A stretch of 64,000 nucleotides of DNA from an uncultured Bacteroidota bacterium (GTDB lineage Bacteria > Bacteroidota > Bacteroidia > Bacteroidales > 4484-276): the NCBI GenBank assembly GCA_903944895.1, contig CAJATL010000021.1:2736-66735 (forward strand), read 5' to 3'. Below, piece after piece: positions 3,185 through 25,982 of this stretch. Position 1 is the stretch's first letter; each line of letters opens with the position of its first letter. The position numbers and the translations under genes are program-made. Under the pieces are notes generated by a model. The model made no database searches. It was not told the origin of the DNA and saw nothing but the letters and a program-made list of their open reading frames with translations.

Positions 3185-3357
3185 CAAATTTAAGTTTAAC
3201 CGGATTTTTGCCAACCGAACTGGTCATTTAATGCAGTTGCTTTTTATCTAAAAACACCCTATTCCATTGATTTTAAGCCATGCAGTCCAAATTTTGAGAT
3301 CATCATTTTTGGCTAATTAAAAATTATCAGTAAATCTATTTTTCATTCAAATAGTTT

Positions 3358-3365
3358 TACCTTTG
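3358..3365 (+). promoter_or_regulatory. Bacteroidota -7 promoter box (TAnnTTTG) upstream of serC
   Basis: TACCTTTG lies 48 nt upstream of the serC ATG and matches the established Bacteroides sigma-AB -7 consensus TAnnTTTG. Confidence 0.4.
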
Positions 3366-3412
3366 CCCTTCAAAAACGTTCGTTTTTTATTATCCAAAAA
3401 AATAATTTAGTT

Positions 3413-4483
3413 ATGAAAAAACACAATTTTTACGCCGGACCATCAATCCTGCCACAATTTACACTTGATGAAACCATTAAAGCCATCGAAAATTTCGCCG
3501 GAACAGGCCTCTCACTCATGGAAATTTCTCATCGCAGCAAGGAATTTGTTGCTGTAATGGATGAGGCCGTAGCCTTGTTTAAGGAGTTACTCAGCATTCC
3601 CGAGGGATACTCGGTGATTTTTTTAGGAGGCGGTGCAAGCCTTCAGTTTGCGATGGTTCCTTTTAATCTCATGCGTTCAAAAGCTGCCTATTTAAATACA
3701 GGCGAATGGGCTTCAAAGGCTTTGAAAGAAGCAAGATTTTTTGGTGAAGTTGTTGAAGTGGCTTCATCAAAAGATAAAATGTTCAGTTACATCCCAAAAG
3801 GATGGACTGTTCCTGAAGATGCAGATTATTTCCACATTACCACAAATAATACAATTTACGGAACCGAAATACGGCAGGATTTTGATTGTAAAGTCCCGTT
3901 AGTTGCCGATATGTCGTCAGATATTTTCAGCCGCCCGATTGATGTTTCAAAATATGCGCTGATTTATGGCGGAGCACAGAAAAACCTTGCACCTGCAGGA
4001 GTCACTTTCGTTATCATCCGTAACGATATTCTTGGTAAAGTCGAGCGTCCAATACCTACCATGTTAAAATATCAGACTCACATTGACAAAGAATCGATGT
4101 TTAACACGCCACCATGTGTTCCGGTTTTTGCTGCTCTCCAAACATTAAAATGGCTCAAGAGTAAAGGTGGTGTTGCTGAAATGGAAAAAATCAACATCAA
4201 AAAAGCAGCTTTGCTTTACGATGAAATCGATCGCAACCCATTATTCAAAGGAACAGTAGCAACAGAAGATCGCTCGCTGATGAATATTTGTTTTGTGATG
4301 GAAGAAAAATACATTCAATTCGAAAAAGAGTTTCTCGATTTGGCAGCAGCACGTGGTTTGGTAGGCTTAAAAGGCCACCGGTCGGTTGGAGGATTTCGTG
4401 CCTCAACCTATAACGCGCTTCCAATCGAAAGTGTTCAGGCTCTGGTTGATGCCATGAAGGAATTTGAAAACATGAAAGCATAA
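3413..4483 (+). CDS. serC: Phosphoserine aminotransferase
   Basis: 356 aa, [15 protein letters not shown]... and ...[16 protein letters not shown], typical SerC termini. serA follows 22 nt downstream. Confidence 0.93.
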
Positions 4484-4505
4484 TTTTCTAAAAGGAGAAA
4501 TAGTT

Positions 4506-5429
4506 ATGAAAAAAGTTTTGGTTGCCACAGATAAACCTTTTGCTCCTGTTGCAGTTCAGCAAATCAGGAAAATTGTTGAAGATGCTGGTTATGAGCTTTT
4601 GCTTTTGGAAAAATATGCCGAAAAGAGCGATCTTTTAAATGCCGTCGAAAATGCAGATGCAATGATTATCCGCAGCGATGTTGCCGACAAAGAAGTGATC
4701 GAAGCTGGTAAAAACCTTAAAATTATCGTCAGGGCCGGCGCCGGTTACGATAATATCGACCTTGAAGCAGCAACGGCAAACGGCGTTGTAGCCATGAATA
4801 CTCCAGGTCAGAATTCAAATGCTGTAGCCGAACTTGCCCTCGGAATGATGGTTTACTCAGCCCGTAATTTTTTTAACGGAACTTCTGGAAAAGAACTTCG
4901 TGGAAAATCGCTCGGCATTCATGCTTTTGGCAATGTTGGTAAGTATGTTGCCGAAATTGCTAAAGGATTTGGAATGAAAATTTTTGCATTCGATCCGTTT
5001 GTCTCTGAAGGTGAGATGGTCAAATTTGGAGTAACTGCAATGGCATCGGAAGCCGAATTATACAGCAAATGCCAGTATGTTTCACTTCACATTCCTGCAA
5101 CGGAAAAAACCAAAAAATCCATCGGGTTTGAGCTTCTTTCAAAAATGCCTAAAAATGCAGTTCTTGTAAATACTGCCCGCAAGGAAGTTATTGATGAGCA
5201 GGGTTTGCTTAAAATGTTTGCCGAACGGGAGGATTTTAAGTATCTTTCGGATATCGAACCCGCCTGCAAAGCTGAAATTGAAGCAAATTTCCCGGGAAGA
5301 TACTTTTTTACACCAAAAAAGATGGGTGCTCAAACTTCGGAGGCTAACGTAAATGCAGGGCTTGCGGCAGCCAAACAAATTGTTGCTTTTTTCGAAAAAG
5401 GAGATATAACTTTTAAAGTAAATAAATAA
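4506..5429 (+). CDS. serA: D-3-phosphoglycerate dehydrogenase (short-form D-2-hydroxyacid dehydrogenase)
   Basis: 307 aa with NAD fold GIHAFGNVGKYVA and catalytic-domain region LVNTARKEVID. Its position directly after serC supports the SerA call. Confidence 0.82.
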   Translation: MKKVLVATDKPFAPVAVQQIRKIVEDAGYELLLLEKYAEKSDLLNAVENADAMIIRSDVADKEVIEAGKNLKIIVRAGAGYDNIDLEAATANGVVAMNTPGQNSNAVAELALGMMVYSARNFFNGTSGKELRGKSLGIHAFGNVGKYVAEIAKGFGMKIFAFDPFVSEGEMVKFGVTAMASEAELYSKCQYVSLHIPATEKTKKSIGFELLSKMPKNAVLVNTARKEVIDEQGLLKMFAEREDFKYLSDIEPACKAEIEANFPGRYFFTPKKMGAQTSEANVNAGLAAAKQIVAFFEKGDITFKVNK

Positions 5430-5449
5430 TATATATTTTTGCCATCATT

Positions 5450-5498
5450 CAGACCTGACAGAACAGCGTTGTCAGGTCTGAAAGTTGTTTTTATTTTT
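5450..5498 (+). terminator. Rho-independent terminator after serA
   Basis: Perfect 11-bp stem CAGACCTGACA (5450-5460) / TGTCAGGTCTG (5470-5480), 9-nt loop, then a T-rich tract GTTGTTTTTATTTTT. Confidence 0.7.
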
Positions 5499-5523
5499 AT
5501 TAATCACCCTAAAAATTACAACT

Positions 5524-5931
5524 ATGGATAACGAAACTGATAAAATTTTGACATTCTTCAGATTTGAGGATCTGAGAGTTTATCACAAGGCGCTCGATTA
5601 CATTGAATGGGTTCATTCAAACACGAGCATTTTTCCGGAAAATGAGATTGATAACCTTACCGGGAAATTTGTTAATTCTGCCCAGGCTATTGCACTTCAA
5701 ATTGCTGAAGGGTCGTCCCGAAACAAAACACAGTTTATTTACTACTTAAAGATGGCAAAAAGTTCCATACGTGAGTGTGTGGTTTTTACTGCTGTTTCAC
5801 GTAACCTCAACTACATGACAGATGCTGCGATGGATGAATCGAGAGGACAATTGATGGAACTCACCAAAATGATTGGTGCACTTATTGGTTCATTGCAACG
5901 AAGCAATGGCGGGAACTATGATGAAAAATAG
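5524..5931 (+). CDS. Four-helix-bundle protein (23S rRNA intervening-sequence protein family, TIGR02436-like)
   Basis: 135 aa from ATG 5524. FEDLRVYHKALDY ... AEGSSRNKTQFIYYLKMAKSSIRE is the signature of this family. Confidence 0.8.
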   Translation: MDNETDKILTFFRFEDLRVYHKALDYIEWVHSNTSIFPENEIDNLTGKFVNSAQAIALQIAEGSSRNKTQFIYYLKMAKSSIRECVVFTAVSRNLNYMTDAAMDESRGQLMELTKMIGALIGSLQRSNGGNYDEK

Positions 5932-5981
5932 CCTGAAATCAGGCAAAAACTAAAAAAAACACTTTCAGAAAATTTCTTACT

Positions 5982-7235
5982 ATGGCAATTTTAAAAGCGT
6001 TTAAAGGATTACGCCCTCCAAAGAATATTGCTAAGGCTTTGGCATCCAGGCCTTATGATGTTTTAAATTCAGAAGAAGCCAGAATTGAAGCTGATGGAAA
6101 TCAGTATTCATTATTACACATCATCAAACCTGAAATTGATCTTCCCGAAGATGTCGATCATTACGCACAGGAAGTTTATGACAAAGCCAGAGAGAATTTT
6201 GATTTGTTCAGGGCTAAGGGTTACCTGGTTGCTGATGATGAAGAATATCTTTACATTTATGCTCAGACCATGAATGGAAAAACACAATACGGGCTTGTTG
6301 GCTGTGCGGCTGTGGATGATTATCTGAACAATGTAATCAAAAAACATGAGTTAACACGCAAGGTCAAAGAAGAGGACCGCATGAAGCACGTCCGCGTGAC
6401 AAATGCCAACATGGAACCTGTTTTTTTTACCTATCCTGCCAAAAAGGAAATTGATGAAATTGTCGAAAGATGGGTAAAAGAACACGAGGCTGAGTACGAT
6501 TTTGTAGCTGACGATGGTTTTGGTCATCATTTCTGGGTTATCGACGACAAAAAAATCAACGATAAGCTGACCTCACTTTTTAAAGAAATTCCTTCGACCT
6601 ATGTTGCTGATGGCCACCACCGGACCGCTGCCGCAGCTTTGGTTGGGAATGAGAAAAAAAAGAATAATCCAAACCATACAGGCGACGAAGAATATAACTT
6701 TTTCCTGGCAGTTCACTTTCCCGATAATCAGCTCACAATTATCGATTATAATCGTGTAGTTACCGATTTGAACGGGCTTTCGGGTGAACAATTTATCCGG
6801 AAACTGAATGACAGTTTTGTTGTTGAAGAAAAAGGAGCATCGATTTACAAACCTGAAAAACTCCATAATTTCAGTCTTTATATTGATGGGAAATGGTTTT
6901 CGTTAACTGCAAAACCAAATACTTACAACGATTCTGATCCGATTGGCGTTCTGGATGTGACCATTCTTTCGAACCTGGTTCTGGAACCTCTGCTCGATAT
7001 TAAAGATTTACGAACTTCCGACCGGATCGATTTTGTTGGTGGTATCCGCGGATTAGGCGAACTTAAAAAACGTGTCGATTCCGGCGAAATGAAAGCCGCC
7101 TTTGCGCTTTACCCGGTTTCGATGAAACAGCTTATCGACATTGCCGACACCGGAAATATTATGCCGCCAAAAACCACCTGGTTCGAACCAAAACTGAGAA
7201 GCGGACTCGTTGTTCATCTTTTGGATGAAATTTAA
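5982..7235 (+). CDS. DUF1015 family protein
   Basis: 417 aa. The N-terminus MAILKAFKGLRPP and the ADGHHRTAAA motif are typical of DUF1015. The family is commonly linked to serA/serC in Bacteroidota. Confidence 0.82.
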   Translation: MAILKAFKGLRPPKNIAKALASRPYDVLNSEEARIEADGNQYSLLHIIKPEIDLPEDVDHYAQEVYDKARENFDLFRAKGYLVADDEEYLYIYAQTMNGKTQYGLVGCAAVDDYLNNVIKKHELTRKVKEEDRMKHVRVTNANMEPVFFTYPAKKEIDEIVERWVKEHEAEYDFVADDGFGHHFWVIDDKKINDKLTSLFKEIPSTYVADGHHRTAAAALVGNEKKKNNPNHTGDEEYNFFLAVHFPDNQLTIIDYNRVVTDLNGLSGEQFIRKLNDSFVVEEKGASIYKPEKLHNFSLYIDGKWFSLTAKPNTYNDSDPIGVLDVTILSNLVLEPLLDIKDLRTSDRIDFVGGIRGLGELKKRVDSGEMKAAFALYPVSMKQLIDIADTGNIMPPKTTWFEPKLRSGLVVHLLDEI

Positions 7236-7236
7236 T

Positions 7237-7273
7237 TGATTGATGATTTTTGATTGATGATTTTTGATTGATC
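7237..7273 (+). repeat. Heptad-periodic tandem repeat (TGATTGA TGATTTT)x2.6 starting 2 nt after the DUF1015 stop
   Basis: Direct reading: TGATTGATGATTTT TGATTGATGATTTT TGATTGATC. The 14-nt unit equals two heptads. Confidence 0.9.
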
Positions 7274-7295
7274 AGTTTAATAATAATACAAAAAT

Positions 7296-7472
7296 ATGGA
7301 AGCAAAAGAACTCGTTTTAAAAACTTTAAAAGATTCAACTGCACCTTTAAAAGGTGGGGAAATTGCCGAAAAATCAGGCCTCGATAAAAAGGAAGTTGAT
7401 AAAGCAATTAAAGTATTGGTGAAGGAGGAAAAGATACACTCTCCGATACGATGCTTTTATGCACCAAAATAA
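7296..7472 (+). CDS. Small winged-helix/HTH DNA-binding protein (58 aa)
   Basis: Below the ORF-track size cut-off. Reads MEAKELVLKTLKDSTAPLKGGEIAEKSGLDKKEVDKAIKVLVKEEKIHSPIRCFYAPK, with an HTH-like segment GEIAEKSGLDKKEVDKAIK. A clean hairpin terminator lies 9 nt after the stop. Confidence 0.6.
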   Translation: MEAKELVLKTLKDSTAPLKGGEIAEKSGLDKKEVDKAIKVLVKEEKIHSPIRCFYAPK

Positions 7473-7480
7473 ATATAAAA

Positions 7481-7504
7481 GGAAACCCCCGGGTTTCTTT
7501 TTTC
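7481..7504 (+). terminator. Rho-independent terminator
   Basis: GGAAACC-cccg-GGTTTC followed by TTTTTT. Confidence 0.75.
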
Positions 7505-7608
7505 ATGTTATATTGCTGCAAAATACCTATTTTCAAAGAATATCATAAGTTTTCTTTATTTTGGAAATCAATCGTTACATTTGCTTAACGACTTTTTATA
7601 ATAGCTCC

Positions 7609-8520
7609 ATGAAAAAAAATGTTGTTTTGTTGCTTTTTTTGCTGGCTATGATAATTCAGGAAAACCAGGCTCAAAGTTATCATCCTTTAATTAAAACCAA
7701 TAAATTTTGGGATGTCGTTAACAATTTTGATGATGGCTTTCCTTGTATGTGCCATTGTTCCGGCTTGCGCTATTTCTATGCAGGATACGATACAATTATC
7801 GAAAATGTAAAATACGCAAGATTCAAAGCCTCTCCTTTACGTTCAATTTATGGTTCTATAGGCCCTTTTTGTCCGCCATATTATGCGGATACACTTTCAG
7901 GTTTAAGTGGAATTTTATTGCATGAAGACAGTGTCGCTCAAAAGGTATTCATTTATGATTACTTTTCTCATCAGGATGACTTGCTCTATGATTTTTCATT
8001 GGAAGTAGGGGATACACTGCTTTCAGATTATACTACCGGTGGCTATCCAGCTATTGTTCAATCCATCGAGAACATTATGCTGAATAATGGTGATATCATC
8101 ATAAAATTCAATTTTACTGATTACGATGCATTTTATATCGAAAGCATTGGCGGAAGTCAGGGTTTATCTGGGGGTCTTTTAATGCCAGAGTACCCCGATG
8201 AATTATTTTGTGTGGAAGACCAGGGCGTTGGTTTACTTTCCGATTGTGCCGGTTGGGTAGACATAAGTGAAATCCAGTTTACAAATTCGATACAGATTTT
8301 TCCAAATCCCGCCGTCGATTTCATCCGGATCACTGGTTTAAAAACCAACAGTATTGCCTCAATTAAAATTTACAATGGGTTAGGTACAGAAATCATAAGC
8401 AGAGATTTATCTATAAACACCGAAACCATCGATGTTTCGCAATTGCAAAACGGTTGCTATCTTTTAAGAGTGGGCAATAATGGAAATTATGCTTCCACAA
8501 AATTTATAATCAGGCGTTAA
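7609..8520 (+). CDS. Secreted protein with T9SS type-A C-terminal sorting domain
   Basis: Start trimmed to MKKNVVLLLFLLAMIIQENQAQ (signal peptide). The C-terminus IQIFPNPAVDFIRITGL...NGCYLLRVGNNGNYASTKFIIRR matches the Por secretion tail (TIGR04183-like). Confidence 0.72.
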   Translation: MKKNVVLLLFLLAMIIQENQAQSYHPLIKTNKFWDVVNNFDDGFPCMCHCSGLRYFYAGYDTIIENVKYARFKASPLRSIYGSIGPFCPPYYADTLSGLSGILLHEDSVAQKVFIYDYFSHQDDLLYDFSLEVGDTLLSDYTTGGYPAIVQSIENIMLNNGDIIIKFNFTDYDAFYIESIGGSQGLSGGLLMPEYPDELFCVEDQGVGLLSDCAGWVDISEIQFTNSIQIFPNPAVDFIRITGLKTNSIASIKIYNGLGTEIISRDLSINTETIDVSQLQNGCYLLRVGNNGNYASTKFIIRR

Positions 8521-8676
8521 ATTCTTACTCCTGAGTAAAAAATAAGCGCATTTGCCTGGCTGGGGTTCATATCATCAAAAAATTTGTCGTGGAAACCAGG
8601 AATTCCATACGTTAATTATTCAAAAATTATTCTGTATGCTTCTTTTGGGAACCTGTTTGATTAGCTTCGTTTTGCC

Positions 8677-8684
8677 TAATTTTG
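8677..8684 (+). promoter_or_regulatory. -7 promoter box TAATTTTG
   Basis: Matches TAnnTTTG, 24 nt upstream of ATG 8708. Confidence 0.4.
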
Positions 8685-8707
8685 CGGTTCTATAAAAATA
8701 CAATAAT

Positions 8708-9478
8708 ATGGCAAAATACGGAAAATGGATTGGTGGCGGATTAGGCTGGGTACTTGGCGGACCAATTGGTGGCTTAATTGGTTTTATGTTTGGTTCGATG
8801 TTCGACGGCATCCAAACCAGCGTTTATCAGTATCAATCGCCGGGTGAAGGTGGTGGTACACCTTATGGCTATGGCGGAACAACGGCATCACAGACACAAA
8901 CCGGCGATTTTACCATTAGTCTGCTTGTACTGGCTGCCTCAGTGATGAAAGCCGACGGCCGGGTTGCAAAATCGGAGCTGGAATATGTCAGAACTTTCCT
9001 TAACAGGCAGTTTGGAACAGAAGTAACAAATCAGAATATTCTGATGCTACACGAAATGCTTCAGAAGGACTTCGATGTGCGCGAAGTTTCGCAGCAGATT
9101 GGCCGTTACATGGATTATTCCTCAAAACTGCAGTTGTTACATTTTCTGTTTGGGATTTCACAGGCTGACGGTTTTACGCATGAAGCCGAAATTGATGTAA
9201 TCGAAAATATTTCGCGATACATCAATATCGAAACCGGCGATTTTAACTCGATAAAAGCCATGTTTGTGAAGGATAATTTCAAAAACTATAAAATTCTTGA
9301 AGTAACTCCTGATGCCAACAACGATGAGTTGAAAAAAGCCTATCGCAAAATGGCAACAAAATACCATCCTGATAAGGTGAGCCACCTGGGAGCGGACATT
9401 CAAAATGCTGCAAAAGAAAAATTCCAGGAACTCAATGCTGCTTACGAAGAAATTAAAAAGGAACGAGGGATCGTTTAA
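8708..9478 (+). CDS. TerB-domain / J-domain fusion protein (DjlA-like co-chaperone)
   Basis: Gly-rich membrane-proximal N-terminus, a central TerB-like region (VMKADGRVAKSELEYV, ISQADGFTHEAEIDVI) and a C-terminal J domain (YKILEV...AYRKMATKYHPDK). Confidence 0.8.
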   Translation: MAKYGKWIGGGLGWVLGGPIGGLIGFMFGSMFDGIQTSVYQYQSPGEGGGTPYGYGGTTASQTQTGDFTISLLVLAASVMKADGRVAKSELEYVRTFLNRQFGTEVTNQNILMLHEMLQKDFDVREVSQQIGRYMDYSSKLQLLHFLFGISQADGFTHEAEIDVIENISRYINIETGDFNSIKAMFVKDNFKNYKILEVTPDANNDELKKAYRKMATKYHPDKVSHLGADIQNAAKEKFQELNAAYEEIKKERGIV

Positions 9479-16946: not shown

Positions 16947-16952
16947 GAATGA

Positions 16953-17057
16953 GGCGTAAGGCGAGAGGCGTAAGTCGGAAGTCAGGAGCTAGGAGTCGGA
17001 AGTCGGAAGTCAGGAGTCAGGAGCCGGAAGCCGGAAGACGGAAGTCAGGAATTGGAA
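16953..17057 (+). repeat. Heptad array, purine-rich arm (15 in-phase heptamers) starting 6 nt after the tsaD stop
   Basis: GGCGTAA GGCGAGA GGCGTAA GTCGGAA GTCAGGA GCTAGGA GTCGGAA GTCGGAA GTCAGGA GTCAGGA GCCGGAA GCCGGAA GACGGAA GTCAGGA ATTGGAA, with no phase slip. Confidence 0.92.
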
Positions 17058-17109
17058 GTTATATGTTGGGAGAGTTGGTAGTAATGTGGATAATTTATAA
17101 AAGTTTACA

Positions 17110-17290
17110 CTTCCAAACTGCCGACTGTCAACCGCCCACTGCCCACTGCCCACTGGAAACTGCTGACTTACGCCTTACGCCTTACTCCTGTCCAACTGTC
17201 CAACTGCCCATTGGCAACTGCCGATTTACGCCTTATGCCTTACGCCTTACGCCTGTCCAACTGTCCAACTGGCAACTGCCAACTGCCGAC
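17110..17290 (-). repeat. Heptad array in opposite polarity, abutting the archaemetzincin stop codon
   Basis: Read on the minus strand: GTCGGCA GTTGGCA GTTGCCA GTTGGACA GTTGGACA GGCGTAA GGCGTAA GGCATAA GGCGTAA ... GTGGGCA GTGGGCA GTGGGCG GTTGACA GTCGGCA. It uses the same vocabulary as the 47002-47150 array. Confidence 0.9.
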
Positions 17291-17839
17291 TTATTTCCCG
17301 GTGGTTTCGTGTTTCATTAGTTCTGCCTTGCAGGTATTGCAAAAATGATGGTTTTTTTGGTCAATATCCTCAACATAAGTACTCGACCTCATGACGCAGG
17401 TAGGGTTGGAGCAATGAATCAATCCAAAACTATGACCGAGTTCATGAATGATTTCTTTCCGAATACGGTCGACAAATATCTTCTCATCACTCTTTATTCC
17501 ATAACGTTCGTTGCGAAGCCTGTAGAGTGAGGCAATTCCTGAACGCCCGTTTAAAAAAGCCTGTCCGAAAATGTAGGTGAGAATGGGGATGAATAGATCA
17601 ACATCGAAAATCCCGAGTGTTTTGTCCTGATCCAAAGCAAAGGTGGCATCAATTTCCTTTAAAAGTTTGTTGGCATCGTATTGATTGCGGGCGGGATTGT
17701 AATACTCGCTCAAATCCAGGTGGCCTTCTTTAATTCTCACCGGAACCATAAATTCATGTTCAACTTCATGCAGCACCTTTTCAAGAAGATTTGTCTCGAA
17801 ATACCCAATCGAAATCAGCACAATATTTTCTACTTTCAT
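17291..17839 (-). CDS. Archaemetzincin-like zinc metallopeptidase (M54 family)
   Basis: 182 aa. HELGHSFGLIHCSNPTCVMRSS...HHFCNTCK fits the archaemetzincin signature HExxHxxGx3Cx4CxM...CxxC. Confidence 0.8.
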   Translation of the reverse strand: MKVENIVLISIGYFETNLLEKVLHEVEHEFMVPVRIKEGHLDLSEYYNPARNQYDANKLLKEIDATFALDQDKTLGIFDVDLFIPILTYIFGQAFLNGRSGIASLYRLRNERYGIKSDEKIFVDRIRKEIIHELGHSFGLIHCSNPTCVMRSSTYVEDIDQKNHHFCNTCKAELMKHETTGK

Positions 17840-17927: not shown

Positions 17928-19271
17928 CTATTTGCCGGCTGGTTTTAAGTCGTATTTCTTTATTTTATTATACAAAGTCACCCTGTCGATTTTGAGTGCT
18001 TTTGCTGTTGCCGAAATGTTCCAATCGTATTTGGAGAGTATTTGAGAGATGTGATGCTTCTCAAGGTCGTCAAGGCTTTCGAAGGTAGGGTTAACAACTT
18101 CTCTTCCCAAAGGAAGGTCTTTAAGACTGATTTTTTTTCCATTTCCAACAACGATTGCCCGTTCGATCATATTTTCGAGTTCGCGGATGTTGCCGGGAAA
18201 CGAAAATTCCTCGAGGCGTTTCAAAGCTGCCGGTTCGATGGTGATGAGTGGCCTGTTCATCGAAGTACAATATTTTTTTATAAAATACTCGACAAGCAGT
18301 GGAATATCGTCGATACGTTCTCTTAAAGGAGGAACATTAATATTTACAACATTAAGCCTGTAGAAAAGGTCTTCACGAAACAATCCTTTTTCGACCATGG
18401 TTTTGAGATCACGGTTTGTAGCGCAAATAACCCTGAAATCGGAGGCGATTTCCTTATTCCCGCCAACCCGGACAAATTTCTTGCTTTCGAGAACGCGTAA
18501 TAACTCAACCTGCATCTTTTGCGAAATCGTGGCAATTTCATCCAGAAAAATAGTGCCGCTATCGGCCATTTCAAACCTGCCTTTACGGTTATAAACAGCG
18601 CCGGTAAAAGCGCCTTTTTCGTGGCCAAATAACTCGCTTTCGAGCAAGCTTTCGCTCAAAGCACCGCAATGAACGCTGACAAGCGGGAAGAATTTACGTG
18701 ATGAGTTTGCGTGAATGGCTCTGGCTACGAGTTCTTTTCCTGTTCCGCTTTCGCCGGTTATGATTACAGAAGCATTCGACTGCGCAACACTTTCGATTTG
18801 ATGGAGGACATTTTTCATGGCTTCACTGCTGCCAATCAGGTCTTCGACGTTTTCCAACGAAATAACTTTAACTTTCAGGATTTCATTTTCTTCAGAAAGG
18901 GTTATTTGCTTAGATGCGTTTCTGATCAAATGCGACAGGTCGTCAGGGTCGAAAGGTTTGGTTACGTAATCGAAAGCCCCGTCTTTTAATGCCTGAACGG
19001 CAGTATCAACAGTTGCAAAAGCCGTCATCATAATTACGATCGAATCTTTGCGAAGTGCTTTAATCCGCTTTAACATTTCTAATCCATCCATACCCGGCAT
19101 TTTTATGTCGGCCAGAATGATGTCAAATTCTTCAGATTCAAGCAATGTCAATGCTTTTCGGGCATCTTCGGCGCATTCTACATGATAACCATCTTCGATA
19201 AACCAGTTAAACAAAGAATCCCTTACCGATTCTTCGTCATCAACAATTAAAATGGAGATTTTTTTTGCCAT
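17928..19271 (-). CDS. Sigma-54-dependent response regulator (NtrC/ZraR class)
   Basis: Receiver domain (ILIVDDE...ILADIKMPGMDG), AAA+ domain with Walker A GESGTGKE and the GAFTGA loop (EKGAFTGAV), and a C-terminal Fis-type HTH (NISATAKALKIDRVTLYNKIKKY). Confidence 0.9.
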   Translation of the reverse strand: MAKKISILIVDDEESVRDSLFNWFIEDGYHVECAEDARKALTLLESEEFDIILADIKMPGMDGLEMLKRIKALRKDSIVIMMTAFATVDTAVQALKDGAFDYVTKPFDPDDLSHLIRNASKQITLSEENEILKVKVISLENVEDLIGSSEAMKNVLHQIESVAQSNASVIITGESGTGKELVARAIHANSSRKFFPLVSVHCGALSESLLESELFGHEKGAFTGAVYNRKGRFEMADSGTIFLDEIATISQKMQVELLRVLESKKFVRVGGNKEIASDFRVICATNRDLKTMVEKGLFREDLFYRLNVVNINVPPLRERIDDIPLLVEYFIKKYCTSMNRPLITIEPAALKRLEEFSFPGNIRELENMIERAIVVGNGKKISLKDLPLGREVVNPTFESLDDLEKHHISQILSKYDWNISATAKALKIDRVTLYNKIKKYDLKPAGK

Positions 19272-19282
19272 AATTTATTTCC

Positions 19283-20953
19283 TTAATTTTTGACCAAGGG
19301 TAAAGTTATCGAAATTGTTGTTTCTTTATCGCGGGCCGATTTTACATCGGTTTTGCCTTTATGGCTTTGAACAATGCCATGAACAATGGCCAGCCCCAGG
19401 CCAATTCCGCTCGCATTTTCTTTGGTTGAGAAAAATGGCTGGAAAATGTGGGGAATGTCCTCTTCGGCAATACCAACGCCATTATCAGTAAATTCGATAC
19501 GAATAGTTTTTTCGTCAGGGTTAACGGTTTTCATCAGTATTTCACCGTTTTCTGATACAGCTTCCGAAGCATTGATAAGAATTGCGATACAGGCTTGTTT
19601 GATCTGATTCGGGCTGCAATAAATCAAATCGTTTTTGGCGTTAAAGTCAGTGAAAAAGCTAATGTTGGCAATTTTCATCGGATGCAACATCAGTTCAAAG
19701 GTGTCGTTCAGGATTTCATGAAGATGTTTTGGCTCAAAGCCTTCCTGATCTTTTCTCGAAAAATCGAGTAATCCTCTAACGATATCGCCGCAACGTTTGG
19801 TTTCATTCTCAATCAATTTCAGGTGTTTTAACATCGTATCTTTACGGGTTGGATCAATATCCTGATTATTTAATTGCTTGTAAACCAATTTTGTGTAAAC
19901 CAATATTCCTGATAATGGATTGTTGATTTCATGGGCAACAGAAAGTGATAATTTTCCAAGTGAAGCAATTCTTTCGATATTGATAAGTTCGTTTTGTGCC
20001 TGCCCCAATTCCTCCGATTTTTTCTGAACTTTATATTCGAGTTGTTGCGACCAGTTTTGAAGTTCGGTATTAGCCTTCTGCAAACTGTTGAGCATATCAT
20101 TAAAAGCATACGAAACCATCTGCATATCTAAAAGTTGATTTGATTTAATTTCGAGCCTGGTGCCTTTATCTCCTTTTGCAACCGCCTCACTTGCCCTGAT
20201 GATCGAATTTAAAGGATGGGCGATTCTTTTATTGGTAAAAATGATTAGAAAAATAACGATTAAAAGAGTCATCGTTGCAGCAAGAAGAAAATAATTGGTT
20301 GTCGATTTTTTTAGTGCTGCATCAAGGCCTTCGAGGGGCATTTTTATGATCAGTGATCCGAGTACTTTGTCGTTCTGGTCGTGAGCATGACAGGAACTTA
20401 CATAGCAGGAAGCGCTGTTTAAGATGGGTGATTTTATCAACAGATGCCTGCTGTCGTTGTTGTTGTGGTTCATGCTACATTCGCTGTTGACGTCGATAAT
20501 CCTGTAAGATTTTTCGGTGGCCGAAAACATGGTGGTAAAATTTTCATGGCAACTGATGCAATCGGGGTCGCTGTGATTGGCAGTGTCGGTCGAAATGGAA
20601 GAAAACACCAGATTATTTTTTACGTCGTACATATTAACATCATCAATTCCCGACATTGTATTAATAATATCCAGTGTGCCCTGCAACGATTTCCGGTCGT
20701 TTTCGAGCATTGAGCGATAAAGTGCTCCTTCAACCAGGAAACCAATATTGTTTCCATTTTCACGAATCACCGATTTCATGTATTCTTCGTTTACCGATCT
20801 GAAAATGATGCCGAAGGACACAAACAGAAAAATGGATGAAATGGTGATAATGAAAATCACCCGCCCATAAATCGAATAACGGAATTTTGTAAACCTGCTA
20901 AGATTCTGATGGATGGGGTTGTTGTTGGAGGGAATTTTGTTAGGCCATTTCAT
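19283..20953 (-). CDS. Sensor histidine kinase with periplasmic CxxCH-containing domain, HAMP, HisKA, HATPase
   Basis: TM helices at about aa 31-53 and 221-240, a periplasmic loop carrying CISCH and CYVSSCH, H-box SVAHEINNPLSGI, and a G-box GIGLGLAIV. The stop is 11 nt before the regulator start. Confidence 0.85.
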   Translation of the reverse strand: MKWPNKIPSNNNPIHQNLSRFTKFRYSIYGRVIFIITISSIFLFVSFGIIFRSVNEEYMKSVIRENGNNIGFLVEGALYRSMLENDRKSLQGTLDIINTMSGIDDVNMYDVKNNLVFSSISTDTANHSDPDCISCHENFTTMFSATEKSYRIIDVNSECSMNHNNNDSRHLLIKSPILNSASCYVSSCHAHDQNDKVLGSLIIKMPLEGLDAALKKSTTNYFLLAATMTLLIVIFLIIFTNKRIAHPLNSIIRASEAVAKGDKGTRLEIKSNQLLDMQMVSYAFNDMLNSLQKANTELQNWSQQLEYKVQKKSEELGQAQNELINIERIASLGKLSLSVAHEINNPLSGILVYTKLVYKQLNNQDIDPTRKDTMLKHLKLIENETKRCGDIVRGLLDFSRKDQEGFEPKHLHEILNDTFELMLHPMKIANISFFTDFNAKNDLIYCSPNQIKQACIAILINASEAVSENGEILMKTVNPDEKTIRIEFTDNGVGIAEEDIPHIFQPFFSTKENASGIGLGLAIVHGIVQSHKGKTDVKSARDKETTISITLPLVKN

Positions 20954-21077: not shown

Positions 21078-21107
21078 AAACCAAAAGCGATGTGCTTCGC
21101 ACACCGC
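21078..21107 (-). terminator. Candidate terminator ending the GcvH-like/NrfCD operon
   Basis: Minus-strand reading is GCGGTGTGC-gaa-GCACATCGC (8/9 paired) followed by TTTTGGTTT, about 110 nt after the stop at 21216. Confidence 0.45.
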
Positions 21108-21215
21108 TCAAAGTATTAAACCCCAATTTATCCCGGCAGGAAACCGATTATAAACCAACAAAAAACATAACTTATCTCTTGCCTGATAACCAAAGGGAAA
21201 TCTTTATTTCCGTTT

Positions 21216-21935
21216 TTAGACCTTAAGAGTTAGAAAATTTTTCTGGAAATCCTGCCATACTTCGGCCGGAAGTTCCGAAAGTGTGTTGTCGCGTAATTCG
21301 CCGCCATCCTGTAAAATTACCATTGAAGGTTCTGGAGCATATTTCGGCATTGTGGCCGATAAAAAATCCTTAAATCTTTCAAGCTCATTCGCCGACCATT
21401 GTGTTGCTTCTTCGGCCAGGTGATAAGAATTTGTATCGGAAATCCAATTTAATGGTTTAATCTTAAACATCCAGCCTTTTTCGTACGGATCATCATTTAA
21501 TATTCCCGGATTTTCGATAAGTGCTGAATTAAAGTTGATGATTTCACCTGAAATGGGCGAGCAAATCTGCAGGACTTTTCCCTGATGTTCGATTTCTGCA
21601 AACACTTCTCCCTTCTTAATATTCTCGCCATTTTTTTTAAGGTTGAATAATTTTACTTCACCGGTAATGTGAAGCAGTAAATCATCTAATCCAACTTTTG
21701 CTGTACCCGATTTTCCTAGAAAAGTCCAGGTGTGGTTGTTGCTGTAAAATAATCCCTGTGGAATTCGTAACACTTTGGCCGTTAATATGCCTAAGGTTTT
21801 TTGAATTTGCCTGGTTATTTTTACCTGCTTGTTCAATAGAAGCCAGAAAGGAACCAATATGGCAAAAAATGCAATGATCGCCAGGTATTCGATGCCTTTT
21901 GTTTCAAAAATGTTGTTGTATGTAAATCCATCCAT
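21216..21935 (-). CDS. Membrane-tethered glycine-cleavage-H-fold protein (paralogue 1)
   Basis: 239 aa with one TM helix (IEYLAIIAFFAILVPFWLLL) followed by the basic stretch NKQVKITRQIQK. The core YSNNHTW...VGLDDLL...GEV...SPISGEI...DPYEKGWMFKIKP aligns without gaps to GcvH. The ~75-aa C-terminal extension is shared with the tail of gene 24110-25807. Confidence 0.75.
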   Translation of the reverse strand: MDGFTYNNIFETKGIEYLAIIAFFAILVPFWLLLNKQVKITRQIQKTLGILTAKVLRIPQGLFYSNNHTWTFLGKSGTAKVGLDDLLLHITGEVKLFNLKKNGENIKKGEVFAEIEHQGKVLQICSPISGEIINFNSALIENPGILNDDPYEKGWMFKIKPLNWISDTNSYHLAEEATQWSANELERFKDFLSATMPKYAPEPSMVILQDGGELRDNTLSELPAEVWQDFQKNFLTLKV

Positions 21936-21985
21936 AATTTATATTTTTTGTGCCATCACTTTTATGTTTGTGAAAGCTGGTTACT

Positions 21986-23215
21986 TTATTTTTCTTCCTT
22001 AACCCATTCAGGAGAATCCCCTAAAACAGGCATACGAGTGATTATCCATCTGAAAATCCAGATTTCGGTAAATATCACCGTTAATGTTACAACAATTTCC
22101 ATCCATGATGGATAATAATGAACGGGTGCATCCCATCTGAAGCCGATTACAGTAACATTAAGCCGGTTTATAATTACTCCGAGCATCGTTATAATGGCTG
22201 CAAAACGTATCATAAAAATATTGCCGGTACGATAGCTGTAAAAGAACAGCATCATCGGGAGGAGAACAAAACCAAACATTTCGAGCAAGTACCAATAACC
22301 CATCGGAGTTCCTAATAAAGCCCATTGCTGGCCATGTATAAAAACCAATAGTTGCATGAAAAAGTAGGCAAACATAGCTCCGGCGCAAATTTTTGATAAT
22401 CCTTTAAGAATACCGTTTTGAGCTTTGTGATTCTTTTCGCTGATCTGGTCGAAAAATACTTTGTGGCTGATAGATCCTTCGAAAATTACCATCGAAAGCC
22501 CGGCAAAAACACTCGAGATCAAAAATAGAATCGGGATAAATTCGGAATACCACAAAGGATGTATTTTGTCTTTTGCCATGAGATAAAGTGCACCTAAACC
22601 TGACTGGTGAAGTGTGGATAGGGTTATCCCAAAAATTACTGCGGCGATAGTCATTCCAGAAAGTATTTTACGTGCGCGTTTCGCACCAAGCCATTCGGCA
22701 ATGGCAGGCGAAAACTCGATAAGTTGTGCAAACATGTAAAGTAAAAAATGCCAAGCAACTAAAAATAAAACCGAGCTGGTTCCAAAGTTGTTGCCAATGA
22801 TCGGATTTACAACATTCCATGGGCGACCCAGGTCGAGAAGCAAAGCACCGGCATAAAAAACGTAAGCTAAAAATCCGTTTAACACCGTAACTCTAACTAT
22901 GGAATGATACTTTTTCATGTTAAGGATGTAAACCATAAATGTCAGTACGTAAGCTCCTCCTGCAAATGCAACTCCGGTAACTACATCAAAACCAATCCAA
23001 AGCCCCCACGGAATTTCCTGGGTTAGATTTGTAATTGACCCGATTCCTTTCCAGAAACGAATTACAATTAGCACTATTCCGAGTAGAATAATTGGTATCG
23101 AGATGATATTAAAAACTGTAAACCACTCACCTTTAGGTTTTAGTTCGTGCAGCAGAAACTGCCAGGTCGATTTCTCCTCATTATCTTTTGTGATGGGTAC
23201 GATCAGGTTACTCAT
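21986..23215 (-). CDS. NrfD/PsrC/HybB-family polytopic membrane quinone-interacting subunit
   Basis: 409 aa and about 10 predicted TM helices. The start overlaps the FeS gene stop by 8 nt. Sequence character (WGLWIGFDVVTGVAFAGGAY, LDLGRPWN) fits the NrfD family. Confidence 0.8.
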   Translation of the reverse strand: MSNLIVPITKDNEEKSTWQFLLHELKPKGEWFTVFNIISIPIILLGIVLIVIRFWKGIGSITNLTQEIPWGLWIGFDVVTGVAFAGGAYVLTFMVYILNMKKYHSIVRVTVLNGFLAYVFYAGALLLDLGRPWNVVNPIIGNNFGTSSVLFLVAWHFLLYMFAQLIEFSPAIAEWLGAKRARKILSGMTIAAVIFGITLSTLHQSGLGALYLMAKDKIHPLWYSEFIPILFLISSVFAGLSMVIFEGSISHKVFFDQISEKNHKAQNGILKGLSKICAGAMFAYFFMQLLVFIHGQQWALLGTPMGYWYLLEMFGFVLLPMMLFFYSYRTGNIFMIRFAAIITMLGVIINRLNVTVIGFRWDAPVHYYPSWMEIVVTLTVIFTEIWIFRWIITRMPVLGDSPEWVKEEK

Positions 23216-24068
23216 TTTCTTCTTCTTTAGGTTGGCTATTTTTATTTGCTTCGTAAATTCCTAAAAGGAGTGGTGGTAAAAGGACAAATACAGAAGGAAC
23301 ACTGTAAAGAAATCCTTTAGAAAGTTCAGGATAGGATTTGTTTTGGATTTTTGCATCATAACCCAATTCGGTAAATGGTATTGGAGATAAGGATAAATAG
23401 CCCGTTCCACCGGCTGTACTTTCACCGTAAATCTGGTCAACATACTTTTCCGGATTTTCCGAGATTCTTTTTCGTGCCTCAGCAATCAGTTGTCTGCGTG
23501 TTCCAAAAATCAAGGCATCGCCGCAGGCTTCAGCACATGCTGGTATCCCACCTTCAATAATCCGGTCATAACACATATCGCATTTTTGAATTTTTGGATT
23601 TGCGCTGTGATATTCGAATTTAGGGATATCAAACGGACAGGAAACCATGCAATACCTGCATCCCATGCATTTATCTGCCCTCCAGATTACAGGCCCTTCT
23701 TTGGTTTTAAACATTGCCTGTGTGAGGCATGCTGCAGCACAGGCAGGTTCGTTGCAGTGCATGCAGGCATTTCTCGAAAATACCTCACCAGCCTCCGTGT
23801 TGCGAATGTTTATCACACAGCGTTGGGTTTCGTTGGTTTTTCTTAGGACCCCGGCCACCATTTCGTCCTGAGGTTCTGGAAAATTGTGTGCCTGCGCGCA
23901 GGCGCTTTCACACGATCTGCAGCCTATGCACCGGGAAGCGTCGAATAATAATCCCTGAAATTCAATTTCGCTATTCCCGGATGTTTTTGAGGCTAAGTTC
24001 CTGCCTGCAAGTAGCGTGAATCCTGCGACTCCGATAGTCTTTAGGAAATTTCGTCTGTCCAAAGCCAT
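23208..24068 (-). CDS. Tat-exported four-cluster 4Fe-4S ferredoxin subunit (NrfC/HybA/PsrB-like) with C-terminal TM anchor
   Basis: Twin-arginine signal MALDRRNFLKTIGVAG. Cys groups are CIGCRSCESAC, CMHCNEPACAAAC, CMGCRYCMVSCP and CDMC..CAEAC. The C-terminal helix is FLYSVPSVFVLLPPLLLGIY. Confidence 0.85.
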   Translation of the reverse strand: MALDRRNFLKTIGVAGFTLLAGRNLASKTSGNSEIEFQGLLFDASRCIGCRSCESACAQAHNFPEPQDEMVAGVLRKTNETQRCVINIRNTEAGEVFSRNACMHCNEPACAAACLTQAMFKTKEGPVIWRADKCMGCRYCMVSCPFDIPKFEYHSANPKIQKCDMCYDRIIEGGIPACAEACGDALIFGTRRQLIAEARKRISENPEKYVDQIYGESTAGGTGYLSLSPIPFTELGYDAKIQNKSYPELSKGFLYSVPSVFVLLPPLLLGIYEANKNSQPKEEENE

Positions 24069-24109
24069 AATGATAGTAATTTCAATCGTTTAGATACTTT
24101 TGAAGGTAT

Positions 24110-25807
24110 TTATTTTGAGGTATTAATGAAGTTGGTTTGAAAGTCTTCCCAAACTTCAGGGCCAAGATCAGCTAAAACATTGTCGCTGAGTTCGCCACCA
24201 TCCTGAAGGATGATGTGGTTGTAAACAGCAGTGTTGGATCTGACTGAAGCAGCAAAGAAATCTTTGAGCCTGGTAAATTCGTCTCTGAGCCATTCTTTGT
24301 ATTTATCAGCCATAAACATAAATTGTATCTCCCTCATCCAATTTATGGGTTCAATAGTATAAACCCAACCTTCAGAATATGTTGAAGTATTAATTTTATC
24401 AGATGCTGTTGTTAACAATTGATTCTGTTCTTTTATAGTTCCTGAAACAGGTGAGTAGATGTCTAATTTTTTGCCTTCATGGTTGATAGTCAGTAATTTT
24501 TCTCCTCTTCTGATCTTTTCGCCTGGAACCTTCATAATAATGCGGGTAAGTGTTCCGGTAATATGTTGAAGGAAGTCATCAATCCCGACTTTTACAACCC
24601 CATTTTTTTCCATAAATGCCCAGGTGTGCGTTTTGTCAAAATATAGCCCTTTTGGAGCTTCAATTGAATTCTCATCCAATAAAGGCTTGATTTCGATGTT
24701 TTCGTTTGTAAAAATCGATTTTTTACTCCTTCTGGATAATACCACGGCAGTTACAATAAAACCTACGGTTAAAAACGAAATGAGAATTATTAACCACAAC
24801 CCTGCAGTTTCGGTTTCATTCGGCTGTTTGGTATTAATTTCCGGATTCGCTAATGCGAGTAAATTTGACTGTTTTTCGATATTTGCCAGATCACAAAAGC
24901 CATTTGAACTTAAAAATCTTTGTCCGTCAGTTGTTAACCAGGTTAAAAATGCCAGAGTACTTTCATCGGTTGGTTTAGCCTCAGAAATGGCGTAAAAATC
25001 ACCACATAAAGCAACAGGATATTTTCCGATCCAAACGCCTCTTGTGAACGTACCCAGATTTTCGTAAATGTTTTCAAAGTTATCAATCCGCCCATTTAGG
25101 TTTTTATCGATCGGAATTATTTTAAGACTTGCTGCAATTTCATTCGTGTTAGCATCAATTATTTGGGTGAGATTACAAAATCCAATAGCGTAAATGTCCT
25201 TATTTAATGCCGAAACCAGATCATCTCCACTTTTTAAACTAATTCCGTTTGCAAATAAAGGTTTTGTTTGCAAGAAGTTGGAAATGCCATTTTTTACTGA
25301 TTCATTAGCAGGTAGATAATAATGAACAGGAATGTTTTGGCTGGTGGTGATAAGATTATTCCAGTTTTGATTTTCCGAGCTGGTGAATAGCATAGAAAAC
25401 TTTTCCGGGGAAATCCCCTGACGAGTAATTTCTTCCAGAAGTGGGTTTTTTGAATTAGTTACCGGAACAATAACCTCGCGTCCAACCAAAATTTTCCAGG
25501 CTGTTTCATCGCTGGATAATTCAGAGAATTGGCCCGAAACAAGGCTAACTGATTTTTTTTTACTTATGGAGGGATTGTTAATATCGGTAATTGTGATTTT
25601 TACCTCAGGCTTTAGTTTGCCATATTCGGCTATCAGGTTAGTTGCCAGGTTTTGTAACTCCTGAGTGCAGTTAATGTTAATTGTTCCATTATTGGATTTA
25701 TTTGTTTGGATAGCAGTTTGATTATCTGATGCTTCATTGCTGCAGTAACTTTTGGTGCTTAAAAGCAAAATTGATAATCCGGCGAAAATGAATAAAATCT
25801 TTTTCAT
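24110..25807 (-). CDS. PstS-like periplasmic binding domain - TM - GcvH-fold fusion protein (paralogue 2)
   Basis: ORF trimmed to MKKILFIFAGLSILLL (ATG 25805-25807). It has a PBP-like region of ~270 aa (AIGFCNL, TLAFLTWLTTDGQRFL), the TM helix AGLWLIILISFLTVGFIVTAVVL followed by SRRSKKS, and then the GcvH-like core plus the same C-terminal extension as gene 21216-21935. Confidence 0.75.
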   Translation of the reverse strand: MKKILFIFAGLSILLLSTKSYCSNEASDNQTAIQTNKSNNGTININCTQELQNLATNLIAEYGKLKPEVKITITDINNPSISKKKSVSLVSGQFSELSSDETAWKILVGREVIVPVTNSKNPLLEEITRQGISPEKFSMLFTSSENQNWNNLITTSQNIPVHYYLPANESVKNGISNFLQTKPLFANGISLKSGDDLVSALNKDIYAIGFCNLTQIIDANTNEIAASLKIIPIDKNLNGRIDNFENIYENLGTFTRGVWIGKYPVALCGDFYAISEAKPTDESTLAFLTWLTTDGQRFLSSNGFCDLANIEKQSNLLALANPEINTKQPNETETAGLWLIILISFLTVGFIVTAVVLSRRSKKSIFTNENIEIKPLLDENSIEAPKGLYFDKTHTWAFMEKNGVVKVGIDDFLQHITGTLTRIIMKVPGEKIRRGEKLLTINHEGKKLDIYSPVSGTIKEQNQLLTTASDKINTSTYSEGWVYTIEPINWMREIQFMFMADKYKEWLRDEFTRLKDFFAASVRSNTAVYNHIILQDGGELSDNVLADLGPEVWEDFQTNFINTSK

Positions 25808-25881: not shown

Positions 25882-25898
25882 GTCAATTAAAATGCCAA
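25882..25898 (-). promoter_or_regulatory. Candidate sigma-54 (-24/-12) promoter for the operon
   Basis: Minus-strand reading is TTGGCATTTTAATTGAC. TGGCA and TTG sit at the canonical spacing of TGGCAC-N5-TTGC, but the -12 element reads TTGA instead of TTGC. It lies ~75 nt upstream of ATG 25807, and a sigma54 activator is encoded nearby. Confidence 0.25.
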
Positions 25899-25954: not shown

Positions 25955-25982
25955 TTATTCAACATGCTAATGTGTTGAATAA
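25955..25982. promoter_or_regulatory. 10-bp perfect inverted repeat, candidate activator-binding site
   Basis: TTATTCAACA-tgctaatg-TGTTGAATAA, about 60-100 nt upstream of the candidate -24/-12 element in a divergent intergenic region. Confidence 0.3.

Follow-up and report, generated by a model that had tools for sequence, protein, structure and literature searches.

NrfD-containing modules are usually understood through the catalytic subunit that they serve, which raises the question of what such a module does when it has none. A locus in contig CAJATL010000021.1 of an uncultured Bacteroidota bacterium (assembly GCA_903944895.1) poses this question within the stretch of 64,000 nt analyzed here, hereafter the window, in whose numbering all positions are given. 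In this locus, a strongly conserved pair of genes for an iron-sulfur (FeS) protein and an NrfD protein has no catalytic partner, but two or three partners with the fold of the glycine cleavage H-protein, GcvH. The answer that we favor, tentatively and at a little under an even chance, is a menaquinol-to-periplasm electron module of the HmcBC type, induced by a two-component system and sigma-54 and equipped with novel, non-lipoylated accessory GcvH-fold subunits. The operon genes, all on the minus strand, and the element that follows them are listed below.

24110 to 25807, minus strand: G1long, 565 amino acids, with a signal peptide, a periplasmic degenerate PBP_like_2 domain carrying an EF-hand-type loop, one transmembrane (TM) helix (~residues 339-357), a predicted cytoplasmic GcvH-fold domain and a conserved C-terminal extension.
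23208 to 24068, minus strand: four-cluster [4Fe-4S] protein exported by twin-arginine translocation (Tat), with a C-terminal TM anchor, HmcB/HybA-like (Pfam, NCBIfam, hydrophobicity scan).
21986 to 23215, minus strand: NrfD-family integral membrane subunit with 10 hydrophobic segments, HmcC/HybB-like (Pfam, NCBIfam).
21216 to 21935, minus strand: G4short, 239 amino acids, with the N-terminal motif FxYxNIFxTKGxEY, one TM helix, a predicted cytoplasmic GcvH-fold domain, a long helix and a small C-terminal sub-domain (VLQDGGEL...W..FQ..FL).
21085 to 21109, minus strand: terminator-like hairpin after the fourth gene (consensus scan, predicted function).

The open reading frame (ORF) listing bears out the four minus-strand genes that an earlier note, made from the sequence alone, had delimited, as well as their spacing of 41 nt, an 8-nt overlap (FeS and NrfD genes) and 50 nt. 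The mechanical ORF of the first gene extends to 25873, but 25807 (MKKILF...) is the likely start of G1long because a conserved -24/-12 promoter at 25883-25897 sets the expected transcription start at ~25872. The earlier note had also placed a hairpin plus T-tract at 21078-21107, of which the hairpin stands, at 21085-21109, with an 11-bp stem (6 GC pairs) and a loop of 3, followed by TTGGTTT, while the T-tract is weak (TTTTGGTTT). In two Lentimicrobium-like loci (L003, 7288-7875, and L008, 5201-5874), the FeS gene stands ~590-670 nt away from the first GcvH-fold gene, where ~40 nt is usual.

The middle pair belongs to the NrfD-family quinone modules, as NrfD and 4Fe-4S models score above their gathering cut-offs, a Tat signal and four Cys groups are present, and the two genes overlap. 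The FeS protein begins with MALDRRNFLK, has one TM segment at residues 253-271 in a Kyte-Doolittle scan, and matches Fer4_11 at 63 bits (cut-off 26.2) along with other 4Fe-4S models, its nearest solved relative being FdnH (1kqf_B, E 7e-28). The NrfD protein reaches 50.3 bits with Pfam NrfD (cut-off 25.8), shows its 10 hydrophobic segments in the same kind of scan, and has no close solved relative among PDB sequences. On the Tat-exported FeS protein with a C-terminal anchor and its NrfD partner of about ten TM helices, which the earlier note had described, Pfam and the hydrophobicity scan agree. Among NCBIfam models, the FeS protein scores 295.8 bits with HmcB (cut-off 420), 203.8 with HybA (cut-off 263) and only 92.8 with NrfC, and the NrfD protein 400.4 with HmcC (cut-off 550) and 249.9 with HybB (cut-off 450). 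Every score of the pair thus lies below the curated cut-off, and neither protein is a member of the Hmc or Hyb equivalogs.

How widely this arrangement recurs was assessed by a locus scan over one genome per GTDB species, which yielded at least 510 loci; the best 80 were taken further, and the seven window proteins were searched against the ORFs of related loci, only loci with enough flanking sequence being counted. All of the best 80 are from Bacteroidota (Bacteroidales, Prolixibacteraceae, Lentimicrobiaceae and metagenome-assembled genomes (MAGs) assigned to Tangfeifania, Draconibacterium, Mariniphaga and Sunxiuqinia). In this phylum, the order G1long, FeS, NrfD, G4short, histidine kinase, response regulator and M54 protease is kept in 66 of 67 loci for its upstream part, so that the GcvH-like genes are co-conserved with the FeS/NrfD pair, which the reading of the earlier note required, and in 62 of 65 for its downstream part, which brings in the two-component pair; two further exceptions are loci incomplete downstream. 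The M54 gene follows the regulator gene in 62/65 Bacteroidota loci and also in those of Marinimicrobia and Eisenbacteria, while the genes flanking the seven-gene block differ between loci. Marinimicrobia carry the core with proteins 72% (NrfD), 62% (regulator) and 56% (FeS) identical to those of the window, and a MAG of Candidatus Eisenbacteria has the core locus too. An arrangement found again in practically every related locus that was examined goes far beyond chance. Judging by the order conserved across Bacteroidota, Marinimicrobia and Eisenbacteria despite changing flanks, the seven-gene locus is a discrete, vertically stable unit of bacteria of the Fibrobacteres-Chlorobi-Bacteroidetes (FCB) group, M54 protease included. 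The four-gene unit described in the earlier note stands, but the conserved unit is larger, taking in the kinase, the regulator and the protease. Two contigs of one MAG (isolate ELA164; L073 and L086) each carry a copy of the locus, so that either the genome has two copies or the bin is mixed.

G4short has ~2,200 word-indexed relatives, the best annotation among them being "glycine cleavage system protein H". At 50% identity and E <= 1e-30, its relatives form 304 clusters, split into short (~237 amino acids) and long (~560 amino acids) forms, and the taxonomy of divergent representatives adds little beyond Bacteroidales and Marinimicrobia.

The catalytic subunit is missing at every scale covered. 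Among the annotated ORFs across the window there is no molybdopterin, NiFe hydrogenase, multihaem or other cytochrome gene; no gene of the molybdopterin, NiFe or multihaem kind recurs along with the pair within ~8 kb in ~75 Bacteroidota loci, where the commonest flanking family outside the conserved block occurs in only 7; and no known catalytic subunit adjoins the pair in the Marinimicrobia and Eisenbacteria loci either. The absence of a catalytic partner beside the pair, which had been claimed for the immediate surroundings, thus extends to the window and to related loci. Homologous clusters that always include a known catalytic subunit, which would have made this a truncated version of a known operon, were looked for in the same ~75 loci and two phyla and were not seen.

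Set against described systems, the pair resembles several without coinciding with any. The Hmc complex of Desulfovibrio (HmcABCDEF) provides the best-scoring families for both middle genes and shares the Tat signal, the four Cys groups, the C-terminal anchor and a cofactor-less NrfD partner, but the multihaem HmcA, the membrane cytochrome b HmcD/E and the cytoplasmic CCG protein HmcF are lacking here, in the window and in the ~75 loci, and the carriers are FCB-group fermenters or anaerobes rather than sulfate reducers. Escherichia coli hydrogenase-2 supplies the second-best families, HybA and HybB, and an identical layout of two proteins that connects the periplasm with menaquinone, whereas no HybO/HybC hydrogenase or maturation genes are found at these loci and the scores fall below the cut-offs. 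NrfCD/SirCD-type modules, which are quinol dehydrogenases for periplasmic cytochromes and are encoded together with their cytochrome reductases (NrfAB, SirA), offer a functional analogy, with an FeS and an NrfD protein that together gate the flow of electrons between quinol and redox proteins of the periplasm; they are, however, not known to have GcvH-fold accessory proteins, and the NrfC score of our FeS protein is the low one given above.

These likenesses leave room for a known complex whose catalytic partner (a periplasmic hydrogenase, formate dehydrogenase, molybdoenzyme or multihaem reductase) is encoded at another locus, the GcvH-fold genes being unrelated neighbors or maturation factors. 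HmcB/HmcC, HybA/HybB and FdnH, the best matches, all work with catalytic partners, and the search for catalytic genes was confined to the loci and the window. We nevertheless consider this arrangement improbable, given scores below every equivalog cut-off, a pair enclosed by GcvH-fold genes in 66/67 loci as well as in Marinimicrobia and Eisenbacteria, and no catalytic gene recurring near the pair or lying among the annotated ORFs of the window. Besides, split operons are unusual for enzymes of the complex iron-sulfur molybdoenzyme (CISM) type.

What the pair has on either side instead are two related proteins. Pfam GCV_H scores 91.8 bits with G4short and 72.4 bits with G1long, and the two share 36% identity over 229 amino acids spanning the TM helix, the GcvH domain and the C-terminal extension (E 3e-51), in keeping with the flanking paralogues that the earlier note had recognized. 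The AlphaFold2 model of G4short (mean pLDDT 84.7, from the predicted local distance difference test) consists of a TM helix running into a basic helix (15-48), the GcvH domain (57-170), a long helix (175-199) and a small C-terminal sub-domain (207-235). Foldseek matched it only to GcvH structures, with TM-scores of 0.88-0.90 per target and a root-mean-square deviation of ~1.8 A over ~129 columns, and Pfam and these models together establish the barrel-sandwich fold. Because the alignments span only those ~129 columns, the ~70-residue C-terminal extension is structurally unmatched; it has no PDB counterpart in Foldseek and, searched alone, no Pfam match. The GcvH equivalog TIGR00527 scores 78.0 and 58.5 bits, below its cut-off of 115.85, and NCBIfam holds no dedicated model for these membrane-tethered proteins. 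A third GcvH-like protein, encoded in the Marinimicrobia and Eisenbacteria loci at 10758-11516 of L087 and 1682-2428 of L089, has a conserved N-terminal Cys motif and a degenerate "DGG" extension and is absent from the Bacteroidota loci.

Does the fold imply the function? The earlier note had spoken of a lipoyl-carrier fold, of which the fold is upheld by Pfam and Foldseek, whereas the carrier function is probably wrong. In hidden Markov model alignments, the lipoyl Lys of three solved H-proteins (1dxm, 1onl and 3a8i) falls on Gly119 of the family, and the family's own Lys120 comes one residue later, so that the invariant lipoyl Lys in the E-S/A-V-K hairpin register is missing. Among short-form representatives (n=30), the hairpin position is Lys in 24, Arg in 4, His in 1 and Gln in 1, that is, not Lys in 6/30 (20%), and in Eisenbacteria it is Arg. 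Lipoylation needs exact placement of the Lys; Wallis and Perham reportedly found in 1994 that lipoyl domains are no longer lipoylated once the Lys is moved by one position. Since the conserved basic residue of the hairpin is out of register and tolerates Arg, lipoate is probably absent, and the GcvH-fold domains are probably not lipoyl carriers.

True swinging-arm carriers, in which the modified hairpin Lys would support dithiol/sulfur or acyl chemistry on the cytoplasmic side of the membrane, as LbpA does in sHdr systems, in functional coupling with the quinone module, are accordingly the least probable of the readings that we weighed, and a very unlikely one. The genuine GcvH fold speaks for them, as do the nearly invariant Gly-Lys of the long forms (n=108; Gly 108/108, Lys in 106 and Arg in 2) and the third paralogue, whose four-Cys motif in two phyla suggests a cofactor. 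Apart from the shifted and replaceable Lys, a shift that by itself reportedly abolishes lipoylation, they would require the NrfD protein to pass electrons through the membrane as far as a lipoyl group in the cytoplasm, for which it has no cofactor, and the locus contains no lipoate ligase, gcvT or gcvP gene. GcvH, LbpA of the sHdr system and GcvH-L thus share with these proteins a common fold (Pfam GCV_H 72-92 bits), but differ from them in that the present proteins are membrane-tethered, carry the extra ~70-residue extension and hold their Lys off-register, with no gcvT/gcvP or sHdr genes nearby.

The Kyte-Doolittle scan gives a signal-like segment and one TM helix for G1long and one TM helix for G4short. 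G4short has an acidic N-terminal tail and a charge of +4 after its TM helix, and G1long a signal peptide and the sequence SRRSKKS after its TM helix. From this charge distribution and from the Tat and Sec signals, both GcvH domains are predicted to be cytoplasmic, on the opposite side of the membrane from the Tat-exported clusters, which supports the topology first proposed. Invariant residues in the periplasmic/TM motif of G4short (F10, G14, E16, Y17 and P29) suggest specific packing in the membrane, and the TM sequence of G1long is not conserved. Exposure of a Gly-Gly by the co-conserved protease, in the style of ubiquitin-like carriers, was set aside, the segment after the invariant Gly-Gly being conserved and modeled as a packed helix.

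Outside the membrane, G1long carries a domain resembling periplasmic binding proteins (PBP), which reaches 30.6-33.5 bits with PBP_like_2 (gathering cut-off 27) and only 19.1 bits with the PstS family TIGR02136 (cut-off 206.6). The phosphate-binding SGT motif is, we assume, lost in this domain. Among orthologues it is poorly conserved except for a GKYP motif and an EF-hand-type loop (D-x-N-x-N-G-x-x-D-x-x-E), whose strong conservation suggests a calcium site; in G1long of the window the loop reads D-K-N-L-N-G-R-I-D-N-F-E (residues 234-245, ~25073-25108). A search of PDB sequences returned nothing at E <= 10, and the first GcvH-fold protein of Marinimicrobia is without the domain. Weakly conserved, without a PDB sequence relative and absent in Marinimicrobia, the PBP-like domain is by this comparison a Bacteroidota-specific accessory outside the core.

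The remaining three genes of the conserved unit lie directly downstream.

19283 to 20953, minus strand: sensor histidine kinase with TM1, a periplasmic PDC/Cache-like domain, TM2, HAMP, HisKA and HATPase.
17928 to 19271, minus strand: NtrC-family response regulator (Pfam Sigma54_activat 236.5 bits, Response_reg, HTH_8; GAFTGA in the translation).
17291 to 17839, minus strand: archaemetzincin-type metalloprotease (Peptidase_M54, Pfam PF07998, 89.6 bits), with the motif HELGHSFGLIHC...C...CxxC.

Pfam and the translations confirm the haem-motif kinase and sigma-54 regulator that the earlier note had placed here. In Bacteroidota the sensor domain of the kinase has invariant C132xxC135H136, C159, M161, C183x4C188H189 and H191; Eisenbacteria keep both CxxCH and CX4CH, and Marinimicrobia CX4CH only. 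Although highly conserved, the domain matches nothing in Pfam or among PDB sequences, the hits to BTF3 and Cytochrom_c3_2 (E 1.3) being at chance level. Predicted with an alignment of database homologues, its AlphaFold2 model (pLDDT 78.5) adopts a PDC/Cache-like fold, for which Foldseek matches WalK, the haem-c sensor GSU0935 (E 8e-5), KinD and DctB. The modeled PDC fold and the invariant CxxCH place it with the haem-c PDC/Cache sensors, which are an established kind of haem-containing sensor (PMC12889525, PMC3460858). With GSU0935/GSU0582 and the sCache_haem (DUF3365) proteins it shares the predicted fold and the CxxCH, but it differs from them in lacking a Pfam match, in its second motif, CX4CH, in its invariant Cys and Met, and in being part of a HAMP kinase whose output goes to a sigma-54 regulator. 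By its model, then, the sensor is a separate two-motif family among haem-c Cache/PAS sensors, with haem attachment predicted.

In NCBIfam, the kinase and the regulator give scores with AtoS/ZraS and AtoC/ZraR. As in zraP-zraSR loci, a sigma-54 two-component system adjoins a target operon with a -24/-12 promoter and an upstream palindrome, but the target here is a quinone-linked FeS module with GcvH-fold proteins instead of a periplasmic chaperone, and the kinase sensor has haem motifs. The protease is an archaemetzincin by its PF07998 score and by HELGHSFGLIHCSNPTCVM...CNTC in its translation, the motif of the family being HEXXHXXGXXHCX4CXM...CXXC (PMC3427221). Between the convergent tsaD and M54 genes, at 16950-17295, lies a region GC-richer than its surroundings with heptamer tandem repeats (GGCGTAA / GTCGGAA / GTCAGGA), whose reverse complements (TTACGCC, ACTGCC) follow ~130-250 nt on in an imperfect inverted repeat with arms of 52-56 nt and 71-73% complementarity; a spurious ORF of 125 residues crosses it.

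Two elements upstream of the first gene connect the regulator with the operon.

25883 to 25897, minus strand: sigma-54-type -24/-12 promoter, TGGCAT-TTTAA-TTGA, a motif conserved among loci.
25955 to 25982, minus strand: putative activator-binding site, an inverted repeat TTATTCAACA-N8-TGTTGAATAA, ~80 bp upstream of the -24 element.

The strict consensus TGGCAC-N5-TTGC has no match in the window, and a relaxed motif, TGGCAY-N5-TTG(A/G), was derived from the comparison of three loci, ~50-100 nt before the first gene. In the form TGG[CT]A[CT]-N5-TTGN, it occurs once upstream of the first gene in 61/65 loci; with a slightly wider search interval, it is found 65 times at that position against ~48 occurrences in the other 2.3 Mb, both strands counted, an enrichment of more than 100-fold. 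The Marinimicrobia promoter (L087) is the canonical TGGCATGCGGATTGCA (TGGCAT-N5-TTGCA). Further upstream, TTCAACA occurs in 53/62 regions, clustering at -83 and ~-171 from the promoter motif, with a consensus palindrome of the type TGTTKAA-N3-TTCAACA, and a related repeat, GTGTTG-N7-CAACAC, precedes the Marinimicrobia operon. The repeat at 25955-25982 is the only such site paired with the promoter motif in the window. A correctly spaced -24/-12 element, an activator with REC, AAA+ (GAFTGA) and HTH domains, and a putative site upstream are thus all present; from this layout we infer a sigma-54-dependent operon, for which the adjacent NtrC-type regulator would be the obvious activator.

A kinase with haem motifs beside a quinone module raises the possibility that the module serves the kinase. 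The FeS/NrfD pair would then be the kinase's input in a redox-sensing complex, passing menaquinol electrons through the four clusters to the predicted periplasmic c-haem(s) of the kinase, which would take the place of HmcA, and reporting the redox state of the quinone pool, while the GcvH-fold proteins would couple the complex to cytoplasmic signaling parts or to the protease. Such a role would fit the co-conservation of the kinase where no catalytic subunit or cytochrome gene is co-conserved, the retention of its haem-c motifs across phyla, CX4CH included, and the unusual conservation of NrfD, 72% between phyla. Cytochromes of the c3 type, with which HmcB naturally works, typically carry CX4CH. 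In some related loci, very little space (<80 nt) separates the kinase gene from the fourth gene, which is compatible with one transcript. Yet an inducible sigma-54 promoter of its own and a terminator-like hairpin before the kinase gene give the operon the layout of a target rather than of a sensor component made constitutively, Marinimicrobia lack the first CxxCH, and a ten-helix NrfD protein with putative proton pathways seems excessive for sensing. We regard this role as unlikely, although it is the foremost of the alternatives. Doubtful as well is its more far-reaching form, a novel membrane redox-signaling machine in which the HmcBC-type module is wired to the kinase c-haems and the lipoate-free GcvH-fold proteins together with the archaemetzincin make up the cytoplasmic transduction side. 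If true, it would be a dedicated sensor of the quinone pool or of periplasmic redox state and would give a bacterial archaemetzincin its first physiological context.

The menaquinol-to-periplasm electron module, which we tentatively prefer, would work as follows. Upon a periplasmic redox or ligand signal, the kinase/regulator pair would turn the operon on. The Tat-exported FeS protein and the NrfD subunit would form an HmcBC/HybAB-type module moving electrons between the menaquinone pool and the periplasm. Because the module has no catalytic subunit of its own, it may serve soluble/periplasmic redox partners in general, either as quinol dehydrogenase or as quinone reductase, comparable to NrfCD/SirCD. 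The two single-pass GcvH-fold paralogues would be accessory subunits with domains on the cytoplasmic face, more likely structural or regulatory adaptors, possibly linked to the protease.

Several observations weigh against this scheme. No periplasmic redox partner was found, the only nearby cytochromes, in the Marinimicrobia locus, being divergent in orientation and not conserved elsewhere. The scheme does not account for the M54 protease, and the third, soluble GcvH-like protein of Marinimicrobia and Eisenbacteria, with its CX12CX5CX2C motif, hints at a cytoplasmic metal/redox chemistry that the scheme leaves unexplained. In the long paralogue, the hairpin Lys is kept in 98% of members, which leaves room for a lipoylated G1long, and the -12 element reads TTGA rather than TTGC in the window and in most Bacteroidota. 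Two loci also depart from the unit: L066 (a Prolixibacteraceae MAG) is without FeS/NrfD between its two GcvH genes (7734-8001), and L052 (a Bacteroidota MAG; 2944-9469) has the four-gene operon without kinase, regulator and M54 genes, unrelated opposite-strand genes standing in their place.

As to the first of these loci, its close relatives L027 and L011 have FeS/NrfD, and it may represent a real deletion or an assembly artefact. The Marinimicrobia cytochromes (L087/L088, 15631-20729) comprise a gene for cytochrome b (Ni_hydr_CYTB) and others for large multihaem cytochromes, located a few hundred bases past M54 on the opposite strand and not found in the other phyla.

Full-text literature searches turned up no account of such a gene set, and a review of NrfD-containing complexes (PMC8076601) describes no such group, in agreement with the earlier note, which could match the locus to no described complex. 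The parts are known families (NrfD module, NtrC-type two-component system, haem-c PDC sensor, GcvH fold and archaemetzincin); the partner set and its dedicated regulation are new. The pipeline name "glycine cleavage system protein H" is unsupported by the sequence features and amounts to a systematic misannotation. The carriers are anaerobic Bacteroidia and their relatives, common in sediments, digesters and anoxic lakes, with at least 510 loci in species-representative genomes, and the role of the locus, once worked out, would add an electron-transport or redox-sensing component to these abundant organisms. It would also reveal what a lipoate-free GcvH fold does at the membrane, test ideas on NrfD subunits acting alone and put the misannotation right. 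For archaemetzincins, a family whose biological function has yet to be established (PMC3427221), it would provide a genetic handle.

An Rfam scan of the window returned no RNA family. The rest of the window is ordinary Bacteroidota chromosome, with type IX secretion system cargo, PorP/SprF, TamB-like, tsaD and aminotransferase genes. At 48833-62767, an ORF of 4644 residues that contains numerous PKD repeats stands before a PorP/SprF gene (62789-63913), an arrangement that resembles a giant type IX secretion cargo/adhesin locus of the SprB type.

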